Position numbers and translations under genes: made by a program. The notes beneath the pieces were generated by a model that was not told the DNA's origin, did not search any database, and saw only the letters and a program-made list of their open reading frames with translations. Positions 2,553-24,919 of a stretch of 32,000 nucleotides of DNA are shown here, in pieces. Each line of letters starts with the position of its first letter. Position 1 is the stretch's first letter. The DNA comes from Candidatus Iainarchaeum sp. (GTDB lineage: Archaea; Iainarchaeota; Iainarchaeia; Iainarchaeales; JAZDEL01): NCBI GenBank assembly GCA_043808785.1, contig JAZDEL010000001.1:30001-62000 (forward strand), in the 5' to 3' direction.

Positions 2553-2665
2553 CCTCCTGTCCGGTTACTCCGCCCCTGTATGGTTTCCTTTATGCGTATA
2601 ACTAATGGGGATGTATGCTTTAAAAGGGTTTTTATAGGTGCGCGGCGCCTTAACCCCCCTAACCC

Positions 2666-2688
2666 AAAAAACCCGCCACGGGCGGGTT
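2666..2688 (-). terminator. Hairpin plus T-run directly after a tRNA 3'-end remnant
   Basis: The minus strand reads TCCCCCCTGCA-T-AACCCGCC-CGT-GGCGGGTT-TTTT. This is an 8-bp perfect stem with a 3-nt loop and a T tract, right after an 11-nt copy of the tRNA-Leu 3' end. Confidence 0.5.
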
Positions 2689-2700
2689 ATGCAGGGGGGA
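2687..2700. repeat. att-like direct repeat, left copy (TTATGCAGGGGGGA)
   Basis: Perfect 14-nt identity with 6268-6281, which covers the discriminator base, the 3' acceptor strand and 3 nt of the T stem of tRNA-Leu plus 3 flanking nt. Confidence 0.6.
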
Positions 2701-2766
2701 AACAACACCCCCATGGTTCTGTCTGCCCGCCCTCTTTTAAGGATTTCGGTTGAGGAAGGCGAGGCT

Positions 2767-4312: not shown

Positions 4313-4409
4313 TGTGATATGGATGCGGCCGAAGGGTGCGGGAGCCGAAAAACCCCGCGATATGTTTATATTACAATTTACTAAAAAGTATTAAACTGTG
4401 ATATGGATG
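4313..4409 (+). repeat. 13-nt direct repeat TGTGATATGGATG (4313-4325 and 4397-4409)
   Basis: The second copy contains the abiEi GTG/ATG start codons. The first copy lies 84 nt upstream and opens only a 27-codon frame. Confidence 0.6.
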
Positions 4410-5039
4410 AAATACAGGATTTTGGTCAGGCGGCTGCTGCTGTGGGAGGGCAGGTATATTTCAGATGCCGAACTGAAAGTGCTTTGCGCAAGGCTGAAAA
4501 TTCCCTACAAAAGCGCGATAATGTATTTGTTTACCAACAAGTACCTGAAGCGGATTGTCCGCGGATTCTTTTACATTCCCTCCGCGGAAGAGCGCAGGCT
4601 GAAAACAGGCGGGCCGAATGTCCTCGAAGCAATCGCAAAAGCGATGGACTATAAGAAAGTGAGGGACTGGTATTTCGGCCTGGAGACCGCGATAAAACTG
4701 AATGCCATAACGCACGAATATTTTACAATAGACTATGTCGTTTCCGACACAATCTTCAGGGCGAAACCGATGGAAATTCTCGGGAGGAGGGTGAAGTTTG
4801 TAAAGCTCAAAAAAGGGCTTTTCGGCTTCGGGACAAAAAGGAACGGCCCCATAATCTACTCCGGCCTGGAGAAAACGCTCCTTGATTTGATACACCTGAA
4901 AAAGCACGGCGGCAAAAAAGACGGCGCGATAAGGGACGATTTAATCGAATGGGCTGAAACAGCCTCAAGAAAAAAACTGAAGGAATATTCGAAGCATTAC
5001 GGCATGTCGGTCAGGAAAGCCGCGGAGGCATTGGAATGA
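4398..5039 (+). CDS. abiEi: AbiEi-family type IV antitoxin / transcriptional regulator
   Basis: N-terminal wHTH ending in LKRIVRGFFYIP. C-terminal domain with YFGLETAIKLNAIT and SGLEKTLLDLIHL. Stop overlaps the abiEii start (ATGA). The start may instead be ATG 4407. Confidence 0.8.
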   Translation: MIWMKYRILVRRLLLWEGRYISDAELKVLCARLKIPYKSAIMYLFTNKYLKRIVRGFFYIPSAEERRLKTGGPNVLEAIAKAMDYKKVRDWYFGLETAIKLNAITHEYFTIDYVVSDTIFRAKPMEILGRRVKFVKLKKGLFGFGTKRNGPIIYSGLEKTLLDLIHLKKHGGKKDGAIRDDLIEWAETASRKKLKEYSKHYGMSVRKAAEALE

Positions 5040-5995
5040 TTCCTTCGGATTTTACCGAAAAAGTCGCGGAAAGCCTCGGAATAAGGGAAACAAAGCTTGT
5101 GGAAAAGGACCTTTACCTGCAGGGGCTTCTCATTGAATTGTCGAAATCGGAATATTTTTCGGAAAATTTTGTTTTCAAGGGCGGCACCTGCCTGACAAAA
5201 GCCTATTTCGGCTATTATCGCTTTTCGGAGGACCTCGACTTTACCTGGCTGCGCCAGGAAGCATTTAAGGGCAAAACCGAGAATCAAATCCGCAGAATGC
5301 TTTCTGAAGAAATTAACAAGATAATGGAACTGCTTGCGGTTACTGCAAAAGAATTGGGCCTTGACTTCAGGGCGGAAAAATCCGATAAGCATTATGTCCA
5401 GCTCGGCGGCAGCAACCGCTTTGCCACATTCAAATTCTGGTACAAGCCCGGCAATCCTGTGGAAAATGAAACATTCATAAAAATCCAGTTAAGTTTTGTG
5501 GACAAAATAATTCATGCACCAAAAAAGCACAAACTTGCGCCGCTCTCCCCGCCGGGCAAAAAGGAACTGGAGCTCGAATACCCCGAATATGCGGCAATGG
5601 CGCTGGAAAGCCCCTCAGTTTACTGCTACGATTTGAAGGAAATCGCTTCCGAGAAAATCCGCGCACTGCTCACGAGAAGGGGCTTCAAGGCAAGGGACAT
5701 AGTCGACCTGTACATGCTTGACAAGAAGGGAATTACAATCAAGTCTGCTAGGGCAATGGCTTCCGAGAAAACCCTGTTCATGCTCCGCTATCTCAAATAT
5801 GCTGAGCACCTGAAGCTCAGGCATTTCGGCGGAAACTTCGCGCTCGGAGAGGAGCAGAACCTGCTGGTAAAACAGCAGGGCAAGGATTTCGGGAAGTTCG
5901 CGGAAAAGGCGCTCGCGGAACTTGACGGACTTGCGGAAGAAATAAGGCGAAAATCGGCAAAGTGGCGCGGCAGGGAAAAGGGAGATGTCATATAA
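5036..5995 (+). CDS. abiEii: AbiEii/AbiGii-family nucleotidyltransferase toxin
   Basis: Hallmark FVFKGGTCLTKAYFGYYRFSEDLDF nucleotidyltransferase motif. 4-nt overlap with the upstream antitoxin gene. Confidence 0.9.
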   Translation: MIPSDFTEKVAESLGIRETKLVEKDLYLQGLLIELSKSEYFSENFVFKGGTCLTKAYFGYYRFSEDLDFTWLRQEAFKGKTENQIRRMLSEEINKIMELLAVTAKELGLDFRAEKSDKHYVQLGGSNRFATFKFWYKPGNPVENETFIKIQLSFVDKIIHAPKKHKLAPLSPPGKKELELEYPEYAAMALESPSVYCYDLKEIASEKIRALLTRRGFKARDIVDLYMLDKKGITIKSARAMASEKTLFMLRYLKYAEHLKLRHFGGNFALGEEQNLLVKQQGKDFGKFAEKALAELDGLAEEIRRKSAKWRGREKGDVI

Positions 5996-6269: not shown

Positions 6270-6281
6270 ATGCAGGGGGGA
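6268..6281. repeat. att-like direct repeat, right copy (TTATGCAGGGGGGA)
   Basis: Identical to 2687-2700. Overlaps the 3' end of the intact tRNA-Leu. Confidence 0.6.
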
Positions 6282-6354
6282 GGATTCGAACCCCCGAACG
6301 CACTAAGCGACAGCGCCCTGAACGCTGCTGGTTTGGCCGCTTCCATACCCCTGC
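6271..6354 (-). tRNA. tRNA-Leu (anticodon CAG), class II, no encoded CCA
   Basis: Hand-folded. Acceptor GCAGGGG/CCCCTGC with discriminator A. Anticodon arm CAGCG-TTCAGGG-CGCTG. Long variable arm (TCGCTTAGTGCGTTC). T arm GGGGG-TTCGAAT-CCTCC. Confidence 0.9.
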
Positions 6355-6505
6355 ATTGCCCGGTTTGCGCGCCTGGTTTGGGGCTGCAACCCGGCTGCCC
6401 CTCCCTCACGCACGGCGTAACCGCGGTTGCCCGCAATTGCGCCATTTGCCTGATAACTAACAATTACGAAAAGTATTTAAAGTTAGGAAGGGATTAAATA
6501 AACCG

Positions 6506-8421: not shown

Positions 8422-9363
8422 TTATTTGCCCTTCAGAAATTCTTTCGCCTGCCGCATGTATTCCTCCAGCGTGAATTCCGCCAGGTGTTTCAGGGTGTTT
8501 TTTTCCACCGAATCCATGAGTGCCCTGAAGTATTGCTCCTTTTTTGCGGAAATGTTCAGCAACGGAAAGCCTTCGTCAATCAGCGCCTTATTCAATATCA
8601 GGCGGCAAACCCTTTTGTTCCCGTCAAGAAAGGGGTGGATTTTGTAAAGCCTGTAATGTGCCTGCGCCGCCTTTTCGACAGGGTTCAGCGGCGTAGAGTT
8701 GTACCATTCCACAAACCCGTCAAGCAGCCCCCCAACCTCGCCGTGATGCGGCGGCCTGTAGCCTATCTCCCTGCCTTTCGGATTTTGCACATCCCTTGCC
8801 TGCAGGTAAACCTGCCCCTCCCTGATTTTTCCGGGCGTTTTCCCTTCAAAGCCCGCCATTATGGTTTTGTGCAGGCCGAGAATGTATTGCCTGTCTAGGG
8901 CATGCTTTTCTTTTATGGATTCGACCGCATTCAGCATGTTCTTGCTTATCCGCTCCCGCGCACTGAAACCGCCTTCCTTTTTAAAAGCGTTCCTGACATC
9001 TTCCAGCCCGACATCGACTTCTTCCGTTGTCAGTGTTGACAGGGTAAAAAGGATAGTGCTGTCCACTTCATATTTTCTCCGCCTTACCGCGGAAAGCGCG
9101 GCAAACTTCCTGTTAAATGCATCCCTGATAAGCAGCGCCTTTATCACGCTGTCCTTTGAAATGAGTTCCGCGGCATATTCCTTTCCCGCGAGTTTCAAGA
9201 TTATTTCCCGCCTGAATGATTCCCCGATTTTAGCCAGCCCCCCCTTCGCGGGCTTTTTGGTGCCGACATATTTGCTGAATGTTTTTGATTTCGCCAAGGT
9301 GCGGTAGCCCAAATCAAGATAATAGTATTTTTTATCGTGGATTGTTTTTGTGCGCAGCTTCAT
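8422..9363 (-). CDS. fic: Fic family protein (AMPylase-type Fido domain)
   Basis: Fic motif HPFLDGNKRVCR (HxFx[DE]GN[GK]R). Confidence 0.85.
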   Translation of the reverse strand: MKLRTKTIHDKKYYYLDLGYRTLAKSKTFSKYVGTKKPAKGGLAKIGESFRREIILKLAGKEYAAELISKDSVIKALLIRDAFNRKFAALSAVRRRKYEVDSTILFTLSTLTTEEVDVGLEDVRNAFKKEGGFSARERISKNMLNAVESIKEKHALDRQYILGLHKTIMAGFEGKTPGKIREGQVYLQARDVQNPKGREIGYRPPHHGEVGGLLDGFVEWYNSTPLNPVEKAAQAHYRLYKIHPFLDGNKRVCRLILNKALIDEGFPLLNISAKKEQYFRALMDSVEKNTLKHLAEFTLEEYMRQAKEFLKGK

Positions 9364-12653: not shown

Positions 12654-12843
12654 ATAACCTTGTTTGCCTTTTTGGGTTCGCTTAATTTTGTACCTTCAAT
12701 CCTGCGCCTATTCCTTTCCCAACCTCTTAATTATCCCCGCCGCCACGGCAACCTCTATCAGGCTCAAAGGCACGGCAAAAACAAGCGTCCCGGCGCCAGG
12801 AGGCAATAATAACCTTTATAAAAAACGCCAGCGTTATAGTGTT

Positions 12844-13236
12844 ATGGTGCAATACCCTTCAGTGGAGAAAATAACCGAGATGAATGCGCTTGCCCTCAGT
12901 ATCATCTATGCCAAAAAGGCTGATGAGGCAAAGGTACTGAGCAGGGCAAAAATAACCGAAGTTATCGGGGATTGCGAGGGTTTTAACGGGGACATTTATG
13001 ATAAGGCAGTTGTATTGCTCAAGGGCATAGTCCAGAAGCATCCCTTTGCCAGCGGGAACAGGCGCACTGCATTCCTCGCAATGAAATATTTTTTGCTTGC
13101 CAACAAGGCAAGGCTTGGGATTGAAGATAACCCCGCGAATGCGAGAATCCTGCAGGGCGTAAGGGAAAATTATTATTCAGATGCGGAACTTAAGGAGTGG
13201 GTAAAAAATGGCAAAATCAGGCAATTCTCAAGATAA
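12844..13236 (+). CDS. doc: Doc (death-on-curing) / Fic-fold toxin
   Basis: HPFASGNRRTAF Fido motif in a ~130-aa protein. CTTTATAAAAA box ends about 20 nt upstream of ATG 12844. The 60-codon upstream extension from 12664 has no coding character. Confidence 0.8.
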   Translation: MVQYPSVEKITEMNALALSIIYAKKADEAKVLSRAKITEVIGDCEGFNGDIYDKAVVLLKGIVQKHPFASGNRRTAFLAMKYFLLANKARLGIEDNPANARILQGVRENYYSDAELKEWVKNGKIRQFSR

Positions 13237-13330
13237 GTTAAGGTGCAAAATAGTCTCGGAAGAGTTGGCGGAATTCAACAAGCTCGTGCGCGGGCACAGG
13301 AAACTGCTGGTTGCAATAGGCGAGCTTTAA
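13208..13330 (+). CDS. Candidate 40-aa ORF overlapping the doc 3' end
   Basis: ATG..TAA encodes MAKSGNSQDKLRCKIVSEELAEFNKLVRGHRKLLVAIGEL, which looks helical. Overlaps doc by 29 nt. Too short for the ORF track. No motif recognised. Confidence 0.25.
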   Translation: MAKSGNSQDKLRCKIVSEELAEFNKLVRGHRKLLVAIGEL

Positions 13331-13359
13331 CGCGCCCCGCGCCTGCGTCCGCCTCGTTT

Positions 13360-13377
13360 GCGCGGTTCGCGCGCGGT
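13360..13377 (+). repeat. GC hairpin 18-mer GCGCGGTTCGCGCGCGGT, copy 1
   Basis: Perfect repeat of 14405-14422. A near-identical inverted copy (one extra C) lies at 26082-26100. Confidence 0.7.
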
Positions 13378-13479
13378 CGGTTGCATTTTCCCCAATCCAC
13401 CTTACTGCGCGGCAAAACTCGCTTTGCCACATTTTTTAAGCAAATTGTTGCATTTATATGCCTGTTAGGGATGGTCTGG

Positions 13480-14382
13480 ATGAATGAGAAAGAGAAAATA
13501 ACAAAGCTGCATTCGGCGGCTAGGAAATACTGCTTCGACGGGCTGGAGCGCTTGCGTGTCAAAGGCAAACCAGGTGATGACGGTGCAAGCCTGCTTAGGG
13601 ATATGTTGTCTGACATGCTCAAGAATCTCTTTTGTGCCATTCTATTTCAGATTGAGAAGTTTGACCCTGATGAATTTGGCAAGCCCGGGCTTAATTCGCT
13701 GGAGGTCGCAAGGGCCAAATTCATTGAAGCGGGAAAAAAAGCGCAGTTTGCCAGCAACAGCTTAATTGCGGAAGGGGTGCTTAAAAGGCTTGACAATTAT
13801 GTTTGCGATGCAAAGGATACGCCGATAGCGAAGGCAAGTAATGAAATAATGTCGTTCTGCGATTATGTCGCCAACATTAGCGAAAATGATTTGGCCTGTG
13901 TAGAGGACGTGCCTTACCGGCACGTTTTGCCGGAAGCGATTGCCGATAAACAGTTCATGCGAATGGTTAAGAAATGGGATATGACGATTGAGAAATATCA
14001 TCCTGAGTATAGTGAACTTTTTTGGTGGCCGCTCGCCGAAACAAAATGCCGTGACTTAATTGCCTTGAATTCCGCCCCATTTGAGAAACGGGGGCTTGCA
14101 GGGATCAGGGATATTCTGAGAAAGCACGGCGTCAAAAGAGTGCTGGTGCTTAACTACGGCGATTATTCATATGAAGCAGACCTTTCCATTTTTGACCCCC
14201 GGGCGCAATATTATCCCCAATGGCGCGTGTTTTGCACATCTGAAAAAATGGACTGGGTAATTTACCTTTCCCATGAATCCTCAATCACATTCGGTGGCAA
14301 ATGGCTGGTAGCCAAGGTAAAGAAGGCATATCCTGAATGGAAGTCGCTGGTTTATAGCAGGCTGTTCGAAAATGTCGACTGA
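13480..14382 (+). CDS. Hypothetical protein
   Basis: Start placed at ATG 13480 (or 13471), just downstream of the TTTATAT box at 13453-13459. The ORF-track extension to 13243 crosses the repeat and terminator region. No motif recognised. Confidence 0.65.
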   Translation: MNEKEKITKLHSAARKYCFDGLERLRVKGKPGDDGASLLRDMLSDMLKNLFCAILFQIEKFDPDEFGKPGLNSLEVARAKFIEAGKKAQFASNSLIAEGVLKRLDNYVCDAKDTPIAKASNEIMSFCDYVANISENDLACVEDVPYRHVLPEAIADKQFMRMVKKWDMTIEKYHPEYSELFWWPLAETKCRDLIALNSAPFEKRGLAGIRDILRKHGVKRVLVLNYGDYSYEADLSIFDPRAQYYPQWRVFCTSEKMDWVIYLSHESSITFGGKWLVAKVKKAYPEWKSLVYSRLFENVD

Positions 14383-14402: not shown

Positions 14403-14426
14403 CCGCGCGGTTCGCGCGCGGTTTTT
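14403..14426 (+). terminator. GC hairpin followed by T5
   Basis: CCGCGCG-gttcg-CGCGCGG-TTTTT, 20 nt after the stop codon at 14380-14382. Confidence 0.55.
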
Positions 14427-14604: not shown

Positions 14605-15933
14605 GTGAAACGGATGAACGGAACGCCCTTAACTCCAGAAAAAATCGAGGAATTTTACGGCGCAATGGAATTGCGAAAAGAGCTCTCGTTTAGCGAATTA
14701 TCCCCCTCCAAATCCAACTGGGGAACCCACTCATACCACTCATACCCTGCGAAGTTCGCGCCGCCTCTAGTAAAGTACCTTGTTGAAAACTACACCCGGT
14801 CAAAAGAAATCATATGGGATCCCTTCTGCGGCTCGGGCACAGTAAATGTTGAAGCACTTCGCAACAACAGAAACAGCATCGGCACAGACATAAACCCGAC
14901 AGCAATTTTAATATCGCGGACAAAGACGACCCCACTTAACCCGAAAAAACTGAAGAAGTACGGGGCAAGCCTTCTCAATAAAATTGAAAAACCAGGGCAC
15001 GGGGACGCAAAATATTTCACCAGGCAAGGAATATTAAACGGCAACCTCCCCGAACTCAGGCGGTGGTATGAAGAAGATGCATTGATGGATCTTGCAAAAA
15101 TTTTATTGGCAACTAAAAAAGTGGCTGCTCCCGAACCATATAAGCAATTTGCATTATGTTGCTTCTCATCCATATTAAAAAAAACTTCATATTGGCTAAA
15201 GACAAGTGTCAAGTCGCAATTTGATTACTCGCAAACTCCAGCAAAGCCAATTCGGTCTTTTGAGAACAGTTTTTGCCGCATGGAAAAAATGAATGAGGAT
15301 TTTTATAACGAATCAAAAAACAAAAAAACTTTTGCGAAGCTATACCGCCACGATGCCACAAAAGAAATGAAAAAATTCAGGAACAAAATTGACCACATAG
15401 TCACCAGCCCCCCATATTTAGTTTCTTATGAATATGGGGATATTTTTAGGCTCTCAACATATCTCCTTACTGGCTACGAGGGCCCCAATTACCTCAAATT
15501 CAAGCGGCAGTTTATCGGGACACGGCTTGAAAAAGAAGTCAAAAAAGAAGACTCAACACGCAAAATATTTAATGAGGCGGCAGGCATAGGTTCAGGCGAA
15601 TCCGAAGGAAAGGCGAAAAGTGCATTAAACTATTACCAAGAAATGGCTAACTTTTTCCAAAATGCAAAACTCCACTTAAGGAAAAAAGGCAAGCTTACGC
15701 TGGTCGTCGGGGATGCAGTAATAAATGGGCAAAAAGTGCCAAACGCATACATCCTCTCCAAAATAGCCGAAACTAAAGGGTTTGCAATAGAGGAAAAATT
15801 CAAGCGGGAAATAGGCAGGAAAAACCTGCCTAGCTTTAGGGATAAAACAACTGGCAAATTTGTGCACAAAAGGGACCCTAATGGGGTTTTGGCACATCCT
15901 GAGGAGTATATATTGGCGTTTAAGGTTGCATAA
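14605..15933 (+). CDS. N4-cytosine or N6-adenine DNA methyltransferase (motif I before motif IV)
   Basis: SYPAKFAPPLVKYLV..IWDPFCGSGT (AdoMet motif I) near residue 75 and IVTSPPY (catalytic motif IV) near residue 268, with a ~190-aa putative target-recognition region between them. The start may be ATG 14614. Confidence 0.85.
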   Translation: MKRMNGTPLTPEKIEEFYGAMELRKELSFSELSPSKSNWGTHSYHSYPAKFAPPLVKYLVENYTRSKEIIWDPFCGSGTVNVEALRNNRNSIGTDINPTAILISRTKTTPLNPKKLKKYGASLLNKIEKPGHGDAKYFTRQGILNGNLPELRRWYEEDALMDLAKILLATKKVAAPEPYKQFALCCFSSILKKTSYWLKTSVKSQFDYSQTPAKPIRSFENSFCRMEKMNEDFYNESKNKKTFAKLYRHDATKEMKKFRNKIDHIVTSPPYLVSYEYGDIFRLSTYLLTGYEGPNYLKFKRQFIGTRLEKEVKKEDSTRKIFNEAAGIGSGESEGKAKSALNYYQEMANFFQNAKLHLRKKGKLTLVVGDAVINGQKVPNAYILSKIAETKGFAIEEKFKREIGRKNLPSFRDKTTGKFVHKRDPNGVLAHPEEYILAFKVA

Positions 15934-15968
15934 TGGCATAATAATGTTTCCCAACAAATAGCATAAGC

Positions 15969-18533
15969 ATGGATACTGCGAATCAATTTACCCGCGTCGG
16001 CACAGAAACGTCAAAAATAGAAGTCAGAATTAGCTATAGGATAATTGACTTATTTTCCAATGGGTTGTATAAAAGCCCAAATAAGGCAATAGAAGAACTT
16101 GTGTCGAACTCTTTTGATGCAGGTGCAACAACTACTCATGTCATTTTAAGTCCCGAAGATTTGAAGTCAGGAGACAATGCAATTGCAGTAATTGACAATG
16201 GCATTGGCATGGATAAGCAAGGGTTAGAAGAACATTGGCAGATAGGGGTAAGCCGAAAAAGGGATGATAACTACCCCGCGCCAAAGGGTCGAAAACAAAT
16301 TGGGAGATTTGGAATTGGAAAATTGGCGACATATGTTTTAGCGAATGAACTTACTCACGTAACAAAAGTTGGGAAAAAATATTTTGCAACTACAATGAAC
16401 TATGGGGCGATTCCTGAGGGGGATAATGGGGGGATACATACAGATGAAAAAGTGGAGCTCCCACTAAGAGAACTAACTGAATCTGAAGCAAAGATGGCTC
16501 TTGAGCGATTTATTGGCGGAACTAAATTTAAAAAAACTGGGGCAAAACTTTTTGGGCCAGATGCCGAAGAAACTTGGACTGTTGCCATATTGTCTAATCT
16601 AAAAAAAATGGCAGAAGATCTAAAGATTGGTAGGCTTCGTTGGGTCTTAGAAACTGCGATGCCACTTAGGGACGACTTTAAACTATATCTTAATGGGCTC
16701 ATCGTAGAGCCATCAAAAATTAAAGAAAAAAGAATCGGCAAGTGGATAATCGGAAAAGACATAGTTGAGGTTCCTTCCCCCGCTACTGATAACCTAAAAC
16801 TTTCTGAAGATAGGAGCGTTAAAAAGGATTCAGAACTGAGGTATGGTTTGGAAAGTGAGTCTTTTGGAAGAGTTACGGGGTATGTTGAACTTTATGACGA
16901 TCTATTAACAAAAGGAAAAAATGTAGAGATATTTAGAAGTCATGGTTTTTTCGTATATGTGAGAGATAGGCTAATCAACATTGACGATGAATATTTTGGT
17001 ATAAGTAGCAACTCTTTAAGGCATGGTACATTTAACCGGTTTAGAGCCATACTTCATATTGATGAATTGGACGACGTATTGCGGTCATCAAGAGAATCAG
17101 TAAGTGAAGGTCCGCTGTATGAAGCTGTTAGGAATTTGTTAGCCGGATTGTTTAATTTTGTCCAAAAAAAACAGAAAGAAATAGAAGAAAAGTTAGAGAC
17201 AAGCACTCAAGCATCTGCCAGGCTAGCATCGGCACCAGATAGCTTAACTAAAAAGCCAATCCTCTACTTGTTAGATTTAGCTCTTTCTGGCAAATATTTG
17301 CCTAGGTATTTCATCATACCAAAAAAATTATCAGAAAGTGAAAAAAAATCATTTTTAGAGGAGTTTAAGAATTTAGGGTCAGATAAGTTTATAGAAAAAA
17401 TCGAAAAAATTGAAGAGCTAACTGAATCAGACAAACTAGCCCAGTTAGACATGGGAACTAAAACTTTAAGGATTAACATATTGCACCCTTTTGTTTCACA
17501 TTTTATTGATGAATATAATCGTTCAGCAAAAAATCAAGCGTTAGAATTATTTGCAATTGCTGAAGTTCTATTGGAATGTCAATTATTAGAATTCGGGCAT
17601 CAGCCAACAGTAGTAAGCGACATTCTAGGGGAGAGAGACGAGCTGTTAAGAAACTTAGGGCGATCTACGCCAAGAAGAAATGCATTACTCGTTTCGCAAG
17701 CACTCTTGGATTCGGTAACTAATGAACACCAATTTGAAGAGGAATTAGCGGCAGCATTTGACAGTTTAGGTTTTTATGACGCAATAAGGGTAGGCGGAAA
17801 AGGCAATCCTGACGGAATAGCAAAAGCATATTTATCGGCAGATGAAAAGGGTGGCGAGAAGGCGTATTTTGTAACTCTTGAAGCAAAAAGCAAAAAACAT
17901 AAAGGCAAGATAAGTAAAGATAGAGTCGACATAGCCACTATTGCGCTTCATCGCAAGAAGTATAAGGCAAATTTTGCAGTTGTTGTGGGGCCGGAGTTTC
18001 CAACGACAAGAGGGGAGAAATCAACACTAAGCCAACTGATAAAAGAAGACAGAGAAAAAAATCCCGGAAAAGGGATTACTCTAATTAAGCATGCAGATTT
18101 AGCAAAACTAGTTAGGTTATCTCCTGGAAAAATTACTCTAGATAAACTAAGGGAGCTTTTCGAGAAATGCAGCCTTCCAGAAGAGTCTAAAGCATGGATT
18201 GATAAGGCGTGCGAAGAGGACATAAAAAAAGCTCCTTATAAGGAGATTTTGAAGGCTATCGAAGTGGAGCAGAGAGACGCCCCTTATCAGCCAGTAGAAT
18301 ATGGAAGTATTTGCACAGCATTGAGAAAGGACTTTAAAATTGACCTTAAAAAAAATGAAGTAATTGATCTTTGCAAGGCGTTATCGAGAATGGCGCCAAC
18401 TTGTATTTTCGCGCGGGAAAATAGTGTAGAATTGAATGTAAGGTCTGACAAAATACTCAGTGCCATTAGTTCAGTAGTGGCTCAATATCCAGATGAAGAA
18501 CAAGACAAAATGAAAAAACTAGGCAACGTTTGA
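15969..18533 (+). CDS. GHKL (Bergerat-fold) ATPase fused to a C-terminal Mrr-like PD-(D/E)xK nuclease
   Basis: N box EELVSNSFDAG, G1 VIDNGIGM, G2 GRFGIGKLA. C-terminal FEEELAAAFDSLGF..GNPDGIAKAY..VTLEAKSKK (PD at 17808-17813, ExK at 17880-17888). Confidence 0.85.
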   Translation: MDTANQFTRVGTETSKIEVRISYRIIDLFSNGLYKSPNKAIEELVSNSFDAGATTTHVILSPEDLKSGDNAIAVIDNGIGMDKQGLEEHWQIGVSRKRDDNYPAPKGRKQIGRFGIGKLATYVLANELTHVTKVGKKYFATTMNYGAIPEGDNGGIHTDEKVELPLRELTESEAKMALERFIGGTKFKKTGAKLFGPDAEETWTVAILSNLKKMAEDLKIGRLRWVLETAMPLRDDFKLYLNGLIVEPSKIKEKRIGKWIIGKDIVEVPSPATDNLKLSEDRSVKKDSELRYGLESESFGRVTGYVELYDDLLTKGKNVEIFRSHGFFVYVRDRLINIDDEYFGISSNSLRHGTFNRFRAILHIDELDDVLRSSRESVSEGPLYEAVRNLLAGLFNFVQKKQKEIEEKLETSTQASARLASAPDSLTKKPILYLLDLALSGKYLPRYFIIPKKLSESEKKSFLEEFKNLGSDKFIEKIEKIEELTESDKLAQLDMGTKTLRINILHPFVSHFIDEYNRSAKNQALELFAIAEVLLECQLLEFGHQPTVVSDILGERDELLRNLGRSTPRRNALLVSQALLDSVTNEHQFEEELAAAFDSLGFYDAIRVGGKGNPDGIAKAYLSADEKGGEKAYFVTLEAKSKKHKGKISKDRVDIATIALHRKKYKANFAVVVGPEFPTTRGEKSTLSQLIKEDREKNPGKGITLIKHADLAKLVRLSPGKITLDKLRELFEKCSLPEESKAWIDKACEEDIKKAPYKEILKAIEVEQRDAPYQPVEYGSICTALRKDFKIDLKKNEVIDLCKALSRMAPTCIFARENSVELNVRSDKILSAISSVVAQYPDEEQDKMKKLGNV

Positions 18534-18551
18534 ATACGTGGGCGCTAAAAT

Positions 18552-19100
18552 ATGGACTCATTAAAACTTAGAAGTATTCTCGAAAATGGTGGCACTAAGG
18601 ATAACCGTCTTATTGCGGGGATTGAAAAATTTATAAATGATGAAAAGTTTCTTTTGGCCAATGACCTCAATGAGAGAACAATGTCTGCCAAACTGGCGCA
18701 ATACCTGCAAAAAGAATACTGCTCGGATTATTTTGTGGATTGCGAATACAACCGCATGTTGGACAAAAATGTAAACTATGCGGATAGTGCAAAACGACTG
18801 CCAGGTAATTATGATAAGACTGCGCCCACAACCGACTTAAAGGGGAAAACTGTCTACCCCGACATTATCATCCATAAGGAACGAAAAAGGAATAATGGCA
18901 ATTATATTGTTATTGAGGTAAAAAAGGAAGTGAATAACGAAGATAAAACACTTGATTTTTCAAAATTAAAAAAATTCACTAAGATATACTCGAGCCCTTA
19001 CTCATTAAATTACGAATGGGGCATTTATTTGGAATTTAATAAAGAAGAGTTGTCTGATGTCAGATTGTTCAAGAATGGAAAGCAAATAAATCCGGTCTGA
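18552..19100 (+). CDS. Small stand-alone PD-(D/E)xK nuclease-fold protein
   Basis: VDCEYNR .. YPDIIIH (18858-18863) .. VIEVKK (18915-18923). Lies 18 nt downstream of the GHKL gene. Confidence 0.65.
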   Translation: MDSLKLRSILENGGTKDNRLIAGIEKFINDEKFLLANDLNERTMSAKLAQYLQKEYCSDYFVDCEYNRMLDKNVNYADSAKRLPGNYDKTAPTTDLKGKTVYPDIIIHKERKRNNGNYIVIEVKKEVNNEDKTLDFSKLKKFTKIYSSPYSLNYEWGIYLEFNKEELSDVRLFKNGKQINPV

Positions 19101-19110
19101 AAAATTAGCG

Positions 19111-19254
19111 CTATTTCCTCAGCACCAATTCAATCTGCTTATTTTTCGGCTCCAGCTCCAGTTCATCGCCATCCTTCAGCCCAAGTAGGGTCAGCGTGTC
19201 CTTCGGGAGCAGTATGCCGAGCGAGTTCCCTATTTTCCTTATCTTGACCTTCAT
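19111..19254 (-). CDS. AbrB/MazE/SpoVT-type swapped-hairpin DNA-binding protein (47 aa)
   Basis: MKVKIRKIGNSLGILLPKDTLTLLGLKDGDELELEPKNKQIELVLRK matches the canonical SpoVT-AbrB pattern. Not in the ORF track because it is under 60 aa. Confidence 0.75.
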   Translation of the reverse strand: MKVKIRKIGNSLGILLPKDTLTLLGLKDGDELELEPKNKQIELVLRK

Positions 19255-19608: not shown

Positions 19609-20826
19609 ATGAATGATTTAAATAGTTTCGGAACAGTTACTGTTATGATGGCGAAGGGACACAAAAAAATGGGCCTGAACTTCATCGACCTTTTCGCGGG
19701 AGCCGGCGGGCTGTCGTGTGGCCTGGAAAGGGCGGGGTTAAATTGCATACTGGGCGTTGACTTCGACAGGGCGGCGATGGAGACCTTCAAAAGGAACCAC
19801 CCGAACGCCGAGGTCTTCGTGGGCGACATAGCGAAGCTCGACGATGAAACCGCGCTTAGGCTGACAAAAAACAGGGAGGTCGACCTCGTGTGTGGCGGCC
19901 CGCCGTGCCAGGGCCTTTCAACGGTGGGCAAGGGGATTCCAAACGACCCCCGAAACCTGCTTTTTCTGCAGTTTGTGAGGCTGGTGAAACTTTTTTCCCC
20001 GAAATACATAATGCTGGAAAATGTGACCGGGTTGCTGGGCAAAAAGAACCGGAACATCCTTAATGGCATAATGTCCGAGTTCGAAAAACTGGGCTATCAT
20101 CTCGATGTCCAGGTGCTGTCGGCGCACCATTACGGCGCCCCGCAGAAAAGAAGGAGGACGATTTTCATAGGGAACAGGATGGGCTACGCGAATATCTTCC
20201 CCGAAATAATGTTCGATGCGCACGACGCATGCTTGCCCCCCGCCAAGACGGTCGGCGACGCGTTCAAATCCCTGGGCATGGGGGACGGCGGGACGCATAA
20301 CCACGATGTCGGCGGCGCATCAATTCCCGAGGGCACAGAAAGGGAGATTATCAGGCGCATCCCAGAGGGGCGGTATATCCGCTATGAAAGCGACGAACTC
20401 GAGCTTCTGCCGAAGGAACTGCATCTTGGCGTTGACTGGCGCACAATTCAGGAGGGCAGGCTGCGGCAGGCGAAATACAGGAGGCTCCACAGGGATGAGC
20501 CCTCCCCGACAATAATGACCGACGGGCACACATACTACCACCCGATTGAGGACAGATTCATCACCGTGAGGGAGGGCGCGGCTATACAGGGCTTTCCCAA
20601 TGATTTCGTGTTCGAGGGCACGGTCTCGCAGCAGTGGAGGCAGGTCGGCAACGCCGTTCCGCCGCCGCTTGCGGAGGCGATCGGGAAGGCGATACTGAAA
20701 ATGGAACTCGAGAAAAATGGAACAATACCGCGGACCAAGGATTTGGAGGGGATACGGAGCCACGCGTTCAATTACAAAACAAAATCAAACACAAACAGGG
20801 GACAACAGAAATTATTGGTTAGATAA
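19609..20826 (+). CDS. dcm: DNA (cytosine-5)-methyltransferase
   Basis: Motif I FIDLFAGAGG, IV GGPPCQGLS, VI ENV, VIII QKRRRTIFIG, X GNAVPPPLA. Confidence 0.92.
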   Translation: MNDLNSFGTVTVMMAKGHKKMGLNFIDLFAGAGGLSCGLERAGLNCILGVDFDRAAMETFKRNHPNAEVFVGDIAKLDDETALRLTKNREVDLVCGGPPCQGLSTVGKGIPNDPRNLLFLQFVRLVKLFSPKYIMLENVTGLLGKKNRNILNGIMSEFEKLGYHLDVQVLSAHHYGAPQKRRRTIFIGNRMGYANIFPEIMFDAHDACLPPAKTVGDAFKSLGMGDGGTHNHDVGGASIPEGTEREIIRRIPEGRYIRYESDELELLPKELHLGVDWRTIQEGRLRQAKYRRLHRDEPSPTIMTDGHTYYHPIEDRFITVREGAAIQGFPNDFVFEGTVSQQWRQVGNAVPPPLAEAIGKAILKMELEKNGTIPRTKDLEGIRSHAFNYKTKSNTNRGQQKLLVR

Positions 20827-20840
20827 AATGCATAATATCG

Positions 20841-21554
20841 CTAGGGCTCTATATCGGGAAATCTCGTGTCCGATACGTCCTCAATATTAAGGGGGGATTC
20901 CTTTGGCTTGCCAAGTACCTTTAAAACGGCATAGAAGGTATAATTGTGGATTGGAAAACTGTTAATTACCTTGGCTCTTAGTCGCAGGGTAAACCTTGTA
21001 TCAAAGGGGGGCGCGCCCAGATTGGCCGGATCACACCTTAAACTATAGAACCCATAACCATCGCCAACTTGCATATAATAACAGTTTTTAAGCTCGTAAA
21101 ATTTGAAAAGAGCATCGGAGGTGGTTGTAAGGCTCGTGTCTTCAAAGTTAATCTGGTCCTGATGCCTGTCTTCAGCCGTCAATTCCCCCTTATTTTTGAC
21201 AAATTTATTTGGCTTGAATTTTTTGCCGTTCGCCACTTTCAGCGCCCCAAGAGCGGTATATTTCCTAGTCAACGGATCATCTTTTGACCAAGTCCAGCCG
21301 CCCCCTTCGGACCACTTAAAAGTCCTTTGACCATAATCCGCCTTAAGGTCCGCCTTTATCTCAAGGTTGTATTTGTTGCCTCCATGAATAAAAATGGCGT
21401 CAACACCACCGCCGGCTCCTGCCCGTTGAAAGCCGGGAGCCAAAACGCCCCTCTCACGCATAATCTCGACCACCTTATCCTCATAGGCATCGCCCTTGTT
21501 GTATGGCGCCTTTTTCTTCATGGGCTTTTTGTTAAGATCCAACTGCATTGGCAT
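20841..21554 (-). CDS. Putative type II restriction endonuclease (PD-(D/E)xK-like)
   Basis: Convergent with dcm (14-nt gap). GGVDAIFIHGGNKYNLEIKA fits D-x12-ExK. Start placed at Met 21554, where TGATG overlaps the vsr stop. The ORF-track start at 21611 would overlap vsr by 58 nt. Confidence 0.6.
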   Translation of the reverse strand: MPMQLDLNKKPMKKKAPYNKGDAYEDKVVEIMRERGVLAPGFQRAGAGGGVDAIFIHGGNKYNLEIKADLKADYGQRTFKWSEGGGWTWSKDDPLTRKYTALGALKVANGKKFKPNKFVKNKGELTAEDRHQDQINFEDTSLTTTSDALFKFYELKNCYYMQVGDGYGFYSLRCDPANLGAPPFDTRFTLRLRAKVINSFPIHNYTFYAVLKVLGKPKESPLNIEDVSDTRFPDIEP

Positions 21555-21946
21555 CAACCCATAATTTTTCCCATTGAACGATTGAAATCTTTCCTCAAAT
21601 TGTGTTCCCAAATGACAATTACCCTGAACCCAAGTTTTCTTAAAGTGCTCCTGACGGCTTTATCCCGCCTTAAATTTGCCATTATCTTCCTTTTCCAAAA
21701 GGCCCTGTTCGATTTGGGCGCCCTGTAGCATTTTGGGCAGGCGTGCCAGAAGCAGCCGTGAAGAAGGATGGCGGCATTCGTGCCGTGAATCAGGATGTCG
21801 GCGCCGGGCGCAGCTTTCGGGTGCATGGTGTGGCGCACCCTGTGCCCCTTGAGGAAATTGTGGGCTCTTCGCTCGGGCGATGTCCATTTGTAACGGATTT
21901 TGGACATTATTTTGCTTCGTTTCGCCTTTGAGAACTTGTCAACCAC
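21554..21946 (-). CDS. vsr: Very-short-patch repair endonuclease
   Basis: SKIMSKIR..TSPE, DILI..AILLHGCFWHACP, SNRAFWKRKIMANLRRD and VIVIWEH are all Vsr signatures. Confidence 0.9.
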   Translation of the reverse strand: MVDKFSKAKRSKIMSKIRYKWTSPERRAHNFLKGHRVRHTMHPKAAPGADILIHGTNAAILLHGCFWHACPKCYRAPKSNRAFWKRKIMANLRRDKAVRSTLRKLGFRVIVIWEHNLRKDFNRSMGKIMG

Positions 21947-22212: not shown

Positions 22213-23886
22213 TCATTTTTCCCCTTTTACTATTGTTTTTACTCTGCTTTTTATGTTTTCACGAGTCGTTTCTAATTTCTTTTTTGCTTGGTCAGTTAAA
22301 CGCGCCGTGTGCATAACTGCGTCCCTAATTGGTTTATATTCGTTTGCATCTCTTGAAAGACAAGCTTCTTTTATTGGGTCGCGCTTGTCTACTAAATTGG
22401 CTAAGCCATCCATGGATAAATAGCTTGTGTCATCAGGGCTTTTCCTGAGAGGAATGCTAATGTTCCCTTTATTTTTATTATTCTTTTCTTTATCTTTGTA
22501 TTTGTTTATTTCCTTAACTGCCTCACCACTTAAGTTGATTTTATTTTTTTCAATATGTTTTCTAATAAGATTTTCAGCAATGAAGCATTCTGCATATGAT
22601 GTAAAATTAAATTGCGCATCATTGGCTAACTCGTCTACCCATTTATCAACTGTTGATTTTTCTTTCTTGTCGTCATCATTTTTATCTTCATAATCTTTTG
22701 AGACTGCGTTAAACAACCCTCTGGATTTACGCTCTTTTTCGGTACGCCTTTGGTTTTCTAGGTCTCCATCCTGCCTATGTTTTACTCTCCAATCATCCCA
22801 ATCATCAAGAATTTTCGCTATGGTCTTCTCCATGTCTTTTAGGAAAGTGGAGTATTTTTCATCGTTAGCCACTATTCCTTCTCTGGCTGTTGCAAATCTA
22901 TCTATTTTATCTTCATCAAGCTCGTTAAAATGAATCTGACCATATAAATAGCTTTCGACAACTCTGGCAGTGGGGATATGTTTCAGTATATCTCTTTCTC
23001 TGAGTCGCCCATTGACAAAAAGGTCGACCCCAACCTTTTCGCCTTCAGAACCAAAAATTTTCAAGTCTTTAGGAAGCATAACCGAAGCTATAAAACCGCT
23101 CACCTTTTCATCCATGCTGATTATTTTGGATTCTTTTAAGTTCTTGAGTTTTTCATCAATATACTCGTCTTTGAATGTGTTAATATTCCATAAAAATTGG
23201 GTTTTTTCTGCTAAAACTTTTAGGTCATCAAGAGATATTTCTTCGTCGTTTAAAAATATCTTAAATGAGTCGTCAATTAAGGAAAACCTAAAATATAATG
23301 CAATAACTTTCCTAAGATGTTCCGATGTGTTTTTTATGCCATCATTTATTTTGTCAAAATAAATAATCGTCCCTTTTTTGTGGTCAACAGTATATCTCTT
23401 AACCAGATCTAAATCGAATTTTTCCAGCGGATATTCTTGTGGCTTTAAGTTATCCGTAATTGCATCAGTTAACCCAGAATTGTCAATAGTCCCCCCTACA
23501 TACTCGCCATTTTCAGTCTTCGTAACGACCATGACTTTTTCGGCACAAGATAATAGAGCCAACTTGCCTATGCCTTTTCGTCCAATATATGGCCTCTTGC
23601 AAATAGGTGAACTATTTCGGGTAATTTTCCCGACTTGTCTTTTGGTATACCCGATCAATAAAAATTTATCTTGAAAATCATTTGACGTCATCCCCTCTCC
23701 ATCATCCTTTATCACCAAGCCATCAGTATTTTTATCTATGTAAATCCACACATTCTTGGCGCAGGCATCCCATGAGTTGGAGATAGCTTCTCCGAGAACA
23801 GTTACAAAATTTCTATATAGATTTCTCCCAAGATGATTCAAGACACTTAATGAAATATTGAATGTGAATTTTTCATTATCCTCCAT
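22213..23886 (-). CDS. GHKL (Bergerat-fold) ATPase with C-terminal HEPN-like Rx4H motif
   Basis: N box GEAISNSWDA, G1 VIKDDGEGM, G2 GRKGIGKLA. The middle region is homologous to the 15969-18533 protein. C-terminal KPIRDAVMHTARLT (R521..H526, nt 22309-22326). Confidence 0.8.
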   Translation of the reverse strand: MEDNEKFTFNISLSVLNHLGRNLYRNFVTVLGEAISNSWDACAKNVWIYIDKNTDGLVIKDDGEGMTSNDFQDKFLLIGYTKRQVGKITRNSSPICKRPYIGRKGIGKLALLSCAEKVMVVTKTENGEYVGGTIDNSGLTDAITDNLKPQEYPLEKFDLDLVKRYTVDHKKGTIIYFDKINDGIKNTSEHLRKVIALYFRFSLIDDSFKIFLNDEEISLDDLKVLAEKTQFLWNINTFKDEYIDEKLKNLKESKIISMDEKVSGFIASVMLPKDLKIFGSEGEKVGVDLFVNGRLRERDILKHIPTARVVESYLYGQIHFNELDEDKIDRFATAREGIVANDEKYSTFLKDMEKTIAKILDDWDDWRVKHRQDGDLENQRRTEKERKSRGLFNAVSKDYEDKNDDDKKEKSTVDKWVDELANDAQFNFTSYAECFIAENLIRKHIEKNKINLSGEAVKEINKYKDKEKNNKNKGNISIPLRKSPDDTSYLSMDGLANLVDKRDPIKEACLSRDANEYKPIRDAVMHTARLTDQAKKKLETTRENIKSRVKTIVKGEK

Positions 23887-24919
23887 AGTTAACGCCCCCT
23901 ATGTGGGCTCTCACAGTTTTGGCTATCGCCCGCCCAAGTTTTACGGGAACCGCGTTTCCGATATGCCTCGCCAACCTCGTAATCATGTACTTATCTTTTG
24001 GGTCAATAAACTTATAACTTTTAGGAAACGACTGAAGAATCGCGGCTTCCCTCAATGATATTGCCCTGTCCTGTTCTGGATGCCCAAAGCGACCATTCCC
24101 CAAGCCTATGCACTGAGTAGTTATTGTTGGCGATGCTCCATCCCAATTCATCCTCCCATAAACCGAGCCGAATGATTTCCCCCCTTTCTTTTTGTGACAG
24201 GACAAAACTAGAGTTTTATCCCAATCACGCCAGCCGCCCCCCATGGGGGTGGCAACTATCCTTTTCTTGTTCAGTTGAGACAATTTCCTTGAGCGATGCA
24301 ATTTGTCTTTTGGGGAGGTTTCCCCATCGCTAATTTTTTCGAGCTTGCATATTGCTTGCCTGACTGTTTTAGGATTTTTATGAGTAGGGGCGATTAATTC
24401 AAGTTCGCCGAGTTTGGAAGCCAACAAGACAAGTCTTTTCCTTGTTTGAGGCACCCCGTAGTGCATAGCATTTACTGTTGAATAAGTTACATGGTAGTCC
24501 AATGCTTCCAAATTCTGTACAAAATCATGGAACACTTTTGCCCTCATTAACTGAGGAACATTCTCCATTGACACAATTTCGGGCTTGACCTCTTCGATCA
24601 GCCTTGAAAATTCATACAGCAAACCCCATTTATCATCTCGCCTCTTTTTAATGTTGTATGTTGAAAAAGGTTGGCAGGGAGCGCAACCAACCAAAACTTT
24701 AATGGCGTTCTTTGGGTAGAGCGTTTTAAGTTCTTCAGAAGATGTCTCCTGAATTGGTTTGTTAATAAACTTAGAGTTATTGTTGGCTTCATATGCAAAC
24801 TTACAAGAAGCATCGGAATCTATGCCTGCCACGACGTTAAAATTTTCCTTTACGAAACCATGGGTTAGGCCACCTACCCCGCAGAACACGTCTACAACAG
24901 CGACAGATTTGGCTTCCAT
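23876..24919 (-). CDS. dcm: DNA (cytosine-5)-methyltransferase
   Basis: Motif I VVDVFCGVGG, IV GCAPCQPFS, VI MENV, VIII QTRKRLVLLA, X GNAVPVKLG. Overlaps the downstream GHKL gene by 11 nt. Confidence 0.92.
   Translation of the reverse strand: MEAKSVAVVDVFCGVGGLTHGFVKENFNVVAGIDSDASCKFAYEANNNSKFINKPIQETSSEELKTLYPKNAIKVLVGCAPCQPFSTYNIKKRRDDKWGLLYEFSRLIEEVKPEIVSMENVPQLMRAKVFHDFVQNLEALDYHVTYSTVNAMHYGVPQTRKRLVLLASKLGELELIAPTHKNPKTVRQAICKLEKISDGETSPKDKLHRSRKLSQLNKKRIVATPMGGGWRDWDKTLVLSCHKKKGGKSFGSVYGRMNWDGASPTITTQCIGLGNGRFGHPEQDRAISLREAAILQSFPKSYKFIDPKDKYMITRLARHIGNAVPVKLGRAIAKTVRAHIGGVNYGG

Follow-up and report, generated by a model that had tools for sequence, protein, structure and literature searches.

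Five subfamilies of Type II restriction endonucleases (REases) with an N-terminal GHKL domain have been catalogued in REBASE (Orlowski & Bujnicki 2008, PMC2441816), among them the R.VeiORF1182P subfamily, itself a putative enzyme, in which the GHKL domain is combined with a PD-(D/E)XK C-terminus. Genes of the MORC and paraMORC type have furthermore been described in restriction-modification (R-M) neighborhoods, including helicase-less neighborhoods that contain a methylase (Iyer et al., PMC2292703), and in VcSduA, a defense nuclease that joins a GHKL domain to a PD-(D/E)xK nuclease, the substitutions E27A and K557A each abolish a defense that is direct and non-abortive (PMC12137116). Here, we analyze three genes (g1, g2 and g3) of a Candidatus Iainarchaeum sp. 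contig, which occupy positions 14605-19100 of the 32,000-nucleotide stretch considered (hereafter, the window), and which encode a predicted DNA methyltransferase (MTase), a GHKL-headed protein with a C-terminal nuclease domain, and a small protein with PD-(D/E)xK motifs, respectively. Our preferred reading, to which we assign a probability of about 0.7, is that g1 and g2 make up a horizontally acquired, helicase-less two-gene R-M module in an archaeal defense island, and that g3 is a guest rather than a component of this module.

Taken together, g1 and g2 are an uncharacterized pair of the GHKL-headed R-M kind that is already on record. Like the R.VeiORF1182P-type enzymes, g2 combines a GHKL domain with a C-terminal PD-(D/E)xK nuclease, is paired with an MTase and lacks a helicase, a likeness in described architecture. 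The novelty implied by a preliminary description of this locus was thus overstated, given both the catalogued GHKL-headed REases (PMC2441816) and the helicase-less MORC/paraMORC neighborhoods with a methylase (PMC2292703).

Domain architecture of g1 and g2

The three genes follow one another closely on the + strand (spacers of 35 nt between g1 and g2 and 18 nt between g2 and g3), in a block with a GC content of 0.36-0.43 across ~14.5-19.5 kb, compared to ~0.50 in the immediate flanks and at most 0.55 elsewhere in the window. Sequence comparison identifies all three open reading frames (ORFs) as real genes and not chance reading frames, since more than 2,184 full-length homologues are on record for g2, and the g3 family comprises 5,213 representative clusters. 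Proteins identical to those of g2 and g3 are on record from a metagenome-assembled genome labelled Candidatus Diapherotrites archaeon. A strong, GC-rich hairpin with a T-run behind it (14403-14421) closes the gene upstream of the block. The g1 ORF is listed from a GTG at 14605, and an ATG at 14614 with a GGAG sequence 7 nt upstream is more likely to be the true start codon.

Based on its motifs and profile matches, g1 is an SPPY-type N6-adenine/N4-cytosine DNA MTase. Motif I (DPFCGSGT, at residue 72) precedes motif IV (SPPY, at residue 268), the Pfam family PF01555 matches at 1.1e-19, the PADLOC model MTase_II (PDLC03322) matches over nearly the full length at 2.4e-44, and the SPPY motif is present in 75/75 aligned MTases. 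With the solved Protein Data Bank (PDB) relatives, the match is limited to the motif I region, and N6A as well as N4C enzymes are among them, such that the product may be either N6-methyladenine (m6A) or N4-methylcytosine (m4C).

In the N-terminal half of g2, HATPase_c_3 matches residues 36-150 (3.7e-19), and the GHKL motifs read EELVSNSFDAGA, DNGIGM and GRFGIGKLA. A full-length AlphaFold (AF2) model built on 29 homologues (mean predicted local distance difference test score, pLDDT, of 78) aligns over its first ~450 residues with the ATPase modules of the MORC2-DNA complex (9cdj), MORC3 (5ix1, 6o1e) and TRAP1/Hsp90 in Foldseek searches, with E-values of 1e-10 to 1e-12 (best 2e-12) over ~440-460 columns, and a target-normalized TM-score (TMt) of 0.50-0.55 for MORC2 and MORC3; we therefore assign this part of the protein as a GHKL domain followed by a transducer domain. 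All three Bergerat-fold motifs (I-III) are intact, with E43, N47, D50, D76, G78, G112, G115 and G117 kept in 75/75 g2 homologues. We note that the loci of these 75 homologues had been chosen by sequence patterns in motif III and in the middle domain, such that the conservation of GHKL motifs I and II, and that of the nuclease motifs discussed below, is unbiased by the selection. The GHKL and transducer folds are what g2 has in common with the MORC, MutL and Hsp90/TRAP1 clamps, at an identity of 12-16%; its C-terminal half is different, in that it has no MutL-type C-terminal endonuclease, no CW domain and no chaperone domains. The ATPase half is followed by a mostly helical middle region (helices 382-408, 411-421, 428-439, 507-516, 523-541 and 546-564, as assigned by DSSP), where conservation along the protein is at its lowest, with values of ~0.46-0.50 in the bins at 441-500.

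As the matches listed for the full-length model against the PDB were to GHKL-module structures only, the nuclease domain was then modeled separately. The resulting model of residues 566-854 (pLDDT 86.8, predicted TM-score 0.84) has the alpha-beta-beta-beta-alpha-beta order, and its best Foldseek matches are FokI (2fok/1fok, E 3e-4) and AspBHI (3e-3), as well as MspJI and LlaBIII. As in the FokI and Mrr/MspJI/AspBHI nucleases, which are 11-18% identical to it, the g2 domain comprises a PD-(D/E)xK core with a single active site, placed after an alpha helix. The motifs NPDG (D615) and LEAKS (E638 and K640) lie in this domain, and E590, D615, E638 and K640 are its putative catalytic residues; D615 is kept in 75/75 homologues, E638 in 73/75 (with Asp in the other two), and K640 in 74/75. 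Beyond the nuclease core, the last ~90 residues partly match winged-helix domains, namely the Cdt1 C-terminal domain (2rqq, 3a4c) and that of ORC1, with Foldseek probabilities of 0.9-0.97 over ~85-90 columns, and a weak Pfam CDT1_C match in 4/29 family members agrees with this. The model thus suggests a helical and winged-helix-like tail, which is a candidate DNA-recognition module.

The preliminary description had assigned g1 as an SPPY amino-MTase and g2 as a GHKL ATPase head joined to a C-terminal PD-(D/E)xK core, encoded with g3 in a tightly spaced, AT-rich + strand block, and these assignments hold up against the ORF listing, GC profile, profile searches, structural model and Foldseek matches. 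Its further designation of the g2 nuclease as Mrr-like is only approximate: the PD-(D/E)xK assignment itself stands, whereas the Mrr_cat match is below threshold (E 0.008, in 2/29 members), and the closest structure is the cleavage domain of FokI, for which the Pfam match (FokI_cleav_dom) is also weak. Also in agreement with the preliminary description, no helicase, HsdS, McrB or Z1226-like partner was found among the genes scanned around the block, and no helicase domain was found in g1-g3 with Pfam, PADLOC and NCBIfam profiles. This leaves the MutL/MORC-like clamp of g2 as the only plausible ATP-using module, as had been proposed.

Genomic partners of g2 and g3

The g2 family is large (more than 2,184 full-length homologues or clusters of ~850 aa, at ~50% identity), and its members are named only "ATP-binding protein" or "hypothetical protein" in their sources; no dedicated NCBIfam or PADLOC model was found for it. 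A scan of 185,579 species-representative genomes (one per species) gave at least 391 places with a g2 relative, the best 80 of which were kept, and the six-frame ORFs of these 80 loci were searched with g1, g2 and g3. The loci come from Planctomycetota, Acidobacteriota, several classes of Proteobacteria, Chloroflexota, Actinomycetota, Nitrospirota, Bacteroidota and an uncultured archaeon, and a search of the PLSDB plasmids with g2 (tblastn) gave a single, partial GHKL match. A g1-type SPPY MTase is present in 79/80 of the loci, and is adjacent to g2 and on the same strand in 72/80 (downstream of g2 in 65, upstream in 7). By comparison, g3 is present in one of the 80. The same holds for four of the closest relatives of the window locus, all of which have both the MTase and g2, and none of which has g3 (0/4); the defense genes around these four include AlwI R-M, BrxL-like, ScoMcrA SBD and AAA_15/21 genes. 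Clustering of the neighbors gave no conserved third partner of g2, such that the family as a whole, too, lacks a helicase, HsdS, McrB or Z1226-like partner. The commonest neighbors are HsdR-like genes, in 14/80 loci, which reflects the defense-island setting; with no SF2 motor (HsdR, Res or fused) found for g2 itself, we rejected its assignment to a Type I, Type III or Type ISP system.

The third gene of the block has a different set of affiliations. The PADLOC model PD-Lambda-3_A matches g3 at 1.2e-20 (residues 24-168), and its motifs read NER, DCEYN, VYPDIIIH and IEVKK. Across the family, E41, D63-C-E-Y-N67, P103-D104, H108, E122-x-K124-K125, D135 and K138 are conserved, with the caveat that the metagenome loci of the family were selected by patterns covering the conserved motifs, such that the conservation of D104, E122 and K124 is not independent of the selection. 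Residue 46 of g3 is Ala, where 70/81 family members have His and the E. coli PD-lambda-3_A has Phe; the putative catalytic residues are intact.

PD-lambda-3 was discovered in a selection in E. coli (Vassallo 2022, PMC9519451) and is an abortive-infection system (PMC13190303). On the E. coli plasmid NZ_ON934556 (L083), the true A subunit (159 aa) matches at 2.3e-100, compared to 1.2e-20 for g3, and is followed by a B subunit of 267 aa (TIGR02391/HEPN-like, 1.2e-179). While g3 has all of the conserved motif residues in common with the A subunit, and is ~32% identical to enterobacterial homologues, we rejected its assignment to a complete PD-lambda-3 system, as a B homologue is missing downstream of g3 in the window, and from all 80 g3-family loci examined. 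We note that on this IncHI1B plasmid the A and B genes (L083 4926-7684) lie just downstream of the BREX gene brxL, and are followed by a gene for a 477-aa "restriction endonuclease", and that the B subunit is a TIGR02391/Hypoth_Ymh protein. As the REBASE entry R.NmeAIP is a fusion of a GHKL domain with Hypoth_Ymh (PMC2441816), GHKL heads, Ymh domains and PD-lambda-3_A-like nucleases seem to have been shuffled among R-M-linked genes.

Most of the proteins in the 5,213 representative clusters, which an exhaustive profile search gave for the g3 family, are 150-190 aa in length. We sampled the neighborhoods of 80 metagenome loci, counting as partners the genes on the same strand within 150 nt, and identified representatives of each partner cluster by Pfam. 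The downstream partner is HsdS-like in 16 of these loci and the upstream partner HsdM-like in 8; the other partners include YhcG/DUF1016 nucleases, Schlafen-AlbA2 proteins and ResIII helicases. In one Type I operon (L081), the order is hsdM, PIN, g3-like, hsdS, hsdR. Some g3 homologues adjoin GmrSD or other genes, and others are solitary. A g2 gene was found in 1/40 of the g3-family loci of at least 4 kb. We thus regard g3 as a separate mobile guest gene, of a kind usually housed within Type I R-M operons, for the most part between hsdM and hsdS. PrrC, Ronin and TgvAB are experimental precedents for such embedding of functional genes (10.1101/2023.04.06.535777; PMC11411939); a further paper on embedded defense genes (10.1101/2024.01.29.577857) makes no mention of GHKL, MORC or hsdS.

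The preliminary description had treated the three genes as a single operon-encoded system with two nuclease folds, and it is here that our results depart from it. A reading in which all three genes form one obligate system, with g3 giving the GHKL enzyme a second subunit for catalysis or for sensing, draws on the 18-nt same-strand spacing, on the lack of any terminator-like site in this spacer, and on the AT-rich composition that g3 shares with the rest of the block. Furthermore, a g2-like gene, an SPPY MTase and a g3-like gene occur together again, in this order, on a metagenome contig (L173, 2035-10227), and the g3-like gene of another locus (L038: hsdM, g3-like, hsdS, then g2 and MTase) is 1.3 kb upstream of the g2 homologue. 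These two loci leave room for a loose functional link. Downstream of the trio in L173, and in the same orientation, lies the gene of a 1,215-aa SF1 helicase-like protein (AAA_30, UvrD_C_2, PIF1). The position of g3 differs, however, in each of the three co-occurrences, as is expected of a guest gene, and the copy in L038 sits within an hsdM-g3-hsdS operon. With g3 also missing from 79/80 g2 loci and from all four close relatives, and with most g3-family genes paired with Type I subunits or other defense genes, we consider an obligate three-gene system quite improbable, and co-occurrence, which the preliminary description had itself named as a test, fails to bear out the operon as a functional unit. 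The possibility that g3 derives from the g2 nuclease, as its paralogue or as a copy split off from it, was likewise rejected, as profile-profile comparison detects no relation between the two (hhalign probability 0.13). The puzzle of two nuclease folds in one system largely dissolves if g3 is a separate mobile guest.

A possible ATP-gated mechanism and the alternatives to it

GHKL ATPase heads with a transducer domain dimerize upon ATP binding in MutL, MORC and Hsp90. Under our preferred reading, the SPPY MTase g1 would mark and protect the host DNA (through m6A or m4C), and g2 would be the restriction subunit, binding unmethylated DNA either through its winged-helix-like tail or with the help of the MTase; as g2 is without a hypervariable stretch, MTase-assisted recognition is a live alternative to a sequence-reading module within g2. 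ATP binding would then close the GHKL heads of g2, as in MutL, MORC, Hsp90 and GyrB, and this closure may juxtapose two single-active-site, FokI-like cleavage domains to produce a double-strand break. By analogy with FokI, two g2 cleavage domains would be needed for such a break; the dimerization of FokI itself depends on DNA and its recognition domain, and not on an ATPase. In such a scheme, ATP would serve as a gate or clamp rather than fuel translocation. The g3 gene is probably co-transcribed with the module, and its product would be either a second-line nuclease acting on its own or a backup effector tied to the R-M.

A number of points weigh against this reading, in addition to the missing terminator between g2 and g3 and the two further co-occurrences discussed above. 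The restriction activity, ATP dependence and methylation sensitivity of the g2 family are all predicted properties. The likeness of the g2 nuclease to FokI is modest (E 3e-4, query-normalized TM-score, TMq, of 0.39), and a sequence-profile search with the C-terminal alignment of g2 gave nothing meaningful among PDB chains. The PD-(D/E)xK signature of g3, which the preliminary description had recognized, is conserved in its family, and it points to a putative PD-(D/E)xK fold together with weak Pfam matches of its relatives to TnsA-like N (10/15), AHJR-like, VRR-NUC, Hjc and PDDEXK_9 families; g3 alone has no Pfam match, and PDB sequence-profile searches with the family alignment and with the single sequence returned nothing meaningful. 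Furthermore, the g2 proteins remain 44-57% identical across phyla, and have no hypervariable specificity region, which is unusual for a Type II REase and a poor fit to a classical sequence-reading enzyme, such that MTase-dependent recognition or a non-sequence signal are possible. Finally, the window and one other locus (L001) form a sub-clade with flipped gene order, in which the MTase lies upstream of g2, and in which the MTase is ~22% identical to that of the main clade while the REase is ~45% identical; strict co-evolution of a cognate pair thus does not hold throughout the family. The asymmetry suggests either replacement of the MTase or a switch in specificity.

One alternative to our reading is a Type III-like arrangement, in which g2 has no sequence specificity of its own and the MTase recognizes the target and recruits or licenses g2 within a hetero-complex, with the GHKL clamp taking the place of the SF2 helicase of Res. 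Its appeal lies partly in the high conservation of g2 without any segment resembling a target recognition domain, and partly in the close association of the two genes: in the commoner order, g2 followed by the MTase, the two genes have a median gap of 0 nt, overlaps of 4 nt occur in five of the MTase-first loci, and this gap and the start/stop overlaps suggest translational coupling. The identities of MTase and REase co-vary across all aligned pairs (r = 0.74), with means of 50% for the MTases and 51% for the REases in the main clade of 72 loci, although this may be mere co-inheritance. The tight spacing and the co-variation also speak for the two-gene core as such. MORC/paraMORC proteins have also been proposed to act with methylases, linking recognition and cleavage sites by DNA looping (PMC2292703). 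On the other hand, the modeled winged-helix-like tail of g2 could itself bind DNA, and the flips in gene order, together with an MTase that has been replaced or has strongly diverged in one sub-clade while g2 was kept, are easier to accommodate if the two proteins act independently. We consider the Type III-like arrangement possible, but on the unlikely side.

For the way in which g2 may work, VcSduA is, by analogy, the best experimental counterpart. It shares with paraMORC3, Shedu type I-D and g2 the order of a GHKL ATPase, a clamp-like middle and a C-terminal PD-(D/E)xK nuclease. It differs in that the g2 nuclease is of a different family and is followed by the extra winged-helix-like tail, and in that VcSduA is stand-alone, where g2 has its MTase in nearly every locus. 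That g2 is itself a self-contained, Shedu-like (paraMORC3/VcSduA-type) nuclease sensing some feature of phage DNA, with the MTase unrelated or merely co-localized, would fit this common architecture (PMC12137116), and E. coli SduA is among the weak Foldseek matches (rank 45, probability 0.18). We nevertheless find this very improbable: SduA_C/DUF4263 (PF14082) is absent from all 29 family members searched (E <= 0.05), PADLOC gives no Shedu match, the structures closest to the g2 nuclease are those of restriction nucleases, and an obligate MTase contrasts with the nuclease-bearing subset of paraMORC3, which is reported as stand-alone and without conserved neighbors (PMC2292703). Two further assignments were rejected. 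The first ~130 residues of g2 share a GHKL head with the BbrUII/HgiDII family (NF050001, 5.6e-18), and the match (64.8 bits, compared to a cut-off of 550) covers only positions 4-134 of the 659 in the model; unlike the FokI-like PD-(D/E)xK domain of g2, the domain at the C-terminus of HgiDII has no assigned fold (PMC2441816). Similarly, the MzaB models of MZA match g2 in the GHKL head only, at weak E-values of 7e-4 and 9e-4, and no MzaA, MzaC or MzaD partner genes were found.

In the case of g3, one may also consider that it is a guard or backup effector following the logic of PrrC and Ronin, kept latent by the R-M proteins and freed as an abortive-infection nuclease once a phage anti-restriction protein disables them. 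The PrrC, Ronin and TgvAB precedents (10.1101/2023.04.06.535777; PMC11411939) lend some weight to this, as do the placement of g3-family genes between hsdM and hsdS (often with overlapping stops and starts), the abortive infection exerted by PD-lambda-3, the A subunit of which resembles g3 (PMC13190303), and the three occurrences of a g3-like gene beside g2 and an MTase (in the window, L038 and L173). This support is purely contextual, by analogy, and independent hitchhikers would be embedded in the same way; moreover, the TIGR02391/HEPN-like B subunit is missing here and from all 80 g3 loci, and some homologues stand alone or beside GmrSD or other genes. We therefore put this role forward only tentatively, and consider it somewhat unlikely. 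A broader proposal would hold both that GHKL plus FokI-like nucleases with an SPPY MTase are a distinct, ATP-gated class of restriction system, and that the g3 family consists of abortive-infection backup effectors that plug into different R-M types (mostly Type I, here the GHKL type) and are released by phage anti-restriction proteins; this conjunction we regard as unlikely.

Surroundings of the locus and biological meaning

The features of the window considered in this work are listed in Table 1. The left side of the window, up to the small Fic/DOC gene, looks like a mobile defense island, among the genes of which also lies a malate/lactate dehydrogenase gene. It is this setting of the low-GC block, in an island with integrase, AbiEii and Fic genes and two further R-M modules, that leads us to propose horizontal acquisition of g1 and g2. 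The first ~70 residues of the 379-aa ORF directly upstream of g1 are rich in Arg and Ala, and may be a spurious N-terminal extension. On the other side of the block, no toxin gene is evident beside the MazE/AbrB-type antitoxin gene. A 96-nt "tRNA-???" with a two-base anticodon that ARAGORN reports at 21385-21480 (-), inside the putative REase ORF, is most likely a false positive.

The second C5 MTase gene and the HATPase_c_3 gene that it overlaps form another helicase-less MTase plus GHKL pair (22213-24919), in an AT-rich block of its own (GC 0.34-0.43). The HATPase_c_3 protein has only the GHKL head in common with g2 (25% identity over 146 aa), and judging from its profile matches it is this gene, and not g2, that is the true BbrUII/HgiDII relative of the window. 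An A-type ATP synthase operon lies at the right end of the window, in keeping with the archaeal label of the genome that has the identical g2 and g3 proteins.

Table 1. Positions of the genes and protein domains discussed, in window coordinates
Feature	Position	Strand	Size and remarks
Tyrosine integrase	2638-3963		Left side of window
AbiEii toxin	5036-5995		Preceded by a 213-aa ORF (4398-5039)
tRNA-Leu	6270-6355		
Fic protein	8422-9363		
Small Fic/DOC protein	12664-13236		Weak PADLOC PDC-S23 matches
ORF directly upstream of the block	13243-14382	+	379 aa; no Pfam, NCBIfam or PADLOC match
g1	14605-15933	+	442 aa; ORF listing
g2	15969-18533	+	854 aa; ORF listing
g2 residues ~20-380, GHKL ATP-binding domain (~20-230) and transducer/S5-like domain (~231-380)	16026-17108	+	HATPase_c_3, Foldseek
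g2 residues ~381-565, mostly helical linker/middle region	17109-17663	+	DSSP on model
g2 residues ~585-720, PD-(D/E)xK nuclease domain, FokI-cleavage-domain-like	17721-18128	+	Separate model, Foldseek
g2 residues ~724-852, helical and winged-helix-like tail, candidate DNA-recognition module	18138-18524	+	Foldseek with model
g3	18552-19100	+	182 aa; ORF listing
MazE/AbrB-type antitoxin	19111-19254	-	47 aa; PF04014, 8.5e-9; convergent with g3, 10 nt past its end
C5 MTase	19609-20826	+	PF00145, 4.7e-74; forms a classical Type II module with the next two genes
Putative REase ORF	20841-21611	-	256 aa; convergent with the C5 MTase; no family match
Vsr mismatch endonuclease	21554-21946	-	2e-14; overlaps the putative REase ORF
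HATPase_c_3 protein	22213-23886	-	557 aa; BbrUII/HgiDII over first 372 residues, 4.5e-86; PADLOC REase_II, 7.5e-36
C5 cytosine MTase	23876-24919	-	PF00145, 6e-63; overlaps the HATPase_c_3 gene by 11 nt

We know of no demonstration of the role of the ATPase in GHKL-headed restriction enzymes, and our literature searches gave nothing to the contrary. The g2 family is well suited to addressing this question, being large and conserved, with confident structure models and a clean two-gene system, and could reveal how a clamp of the MutL/MORC type controls a nuclease. An answer would be relevant to the licensing of the MutL endonuclease, to Shedu type I-D, and to the origin from R-M systems that has been proposed for the eukaryotic MORC proteins. 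As for g3, the space between hsdM and hsdS commonly houses PD-lambda-3_A-like genes as guests, and such genes should therefore be annotated as embedded accessories, and not as subunits. The g3 family provides a large set of candidate backup effectors coupled to R-M, and if the backup-effector reading is true, it would generalize the logic of PrrC and Ronin to a family of more than 5,000 clusters.

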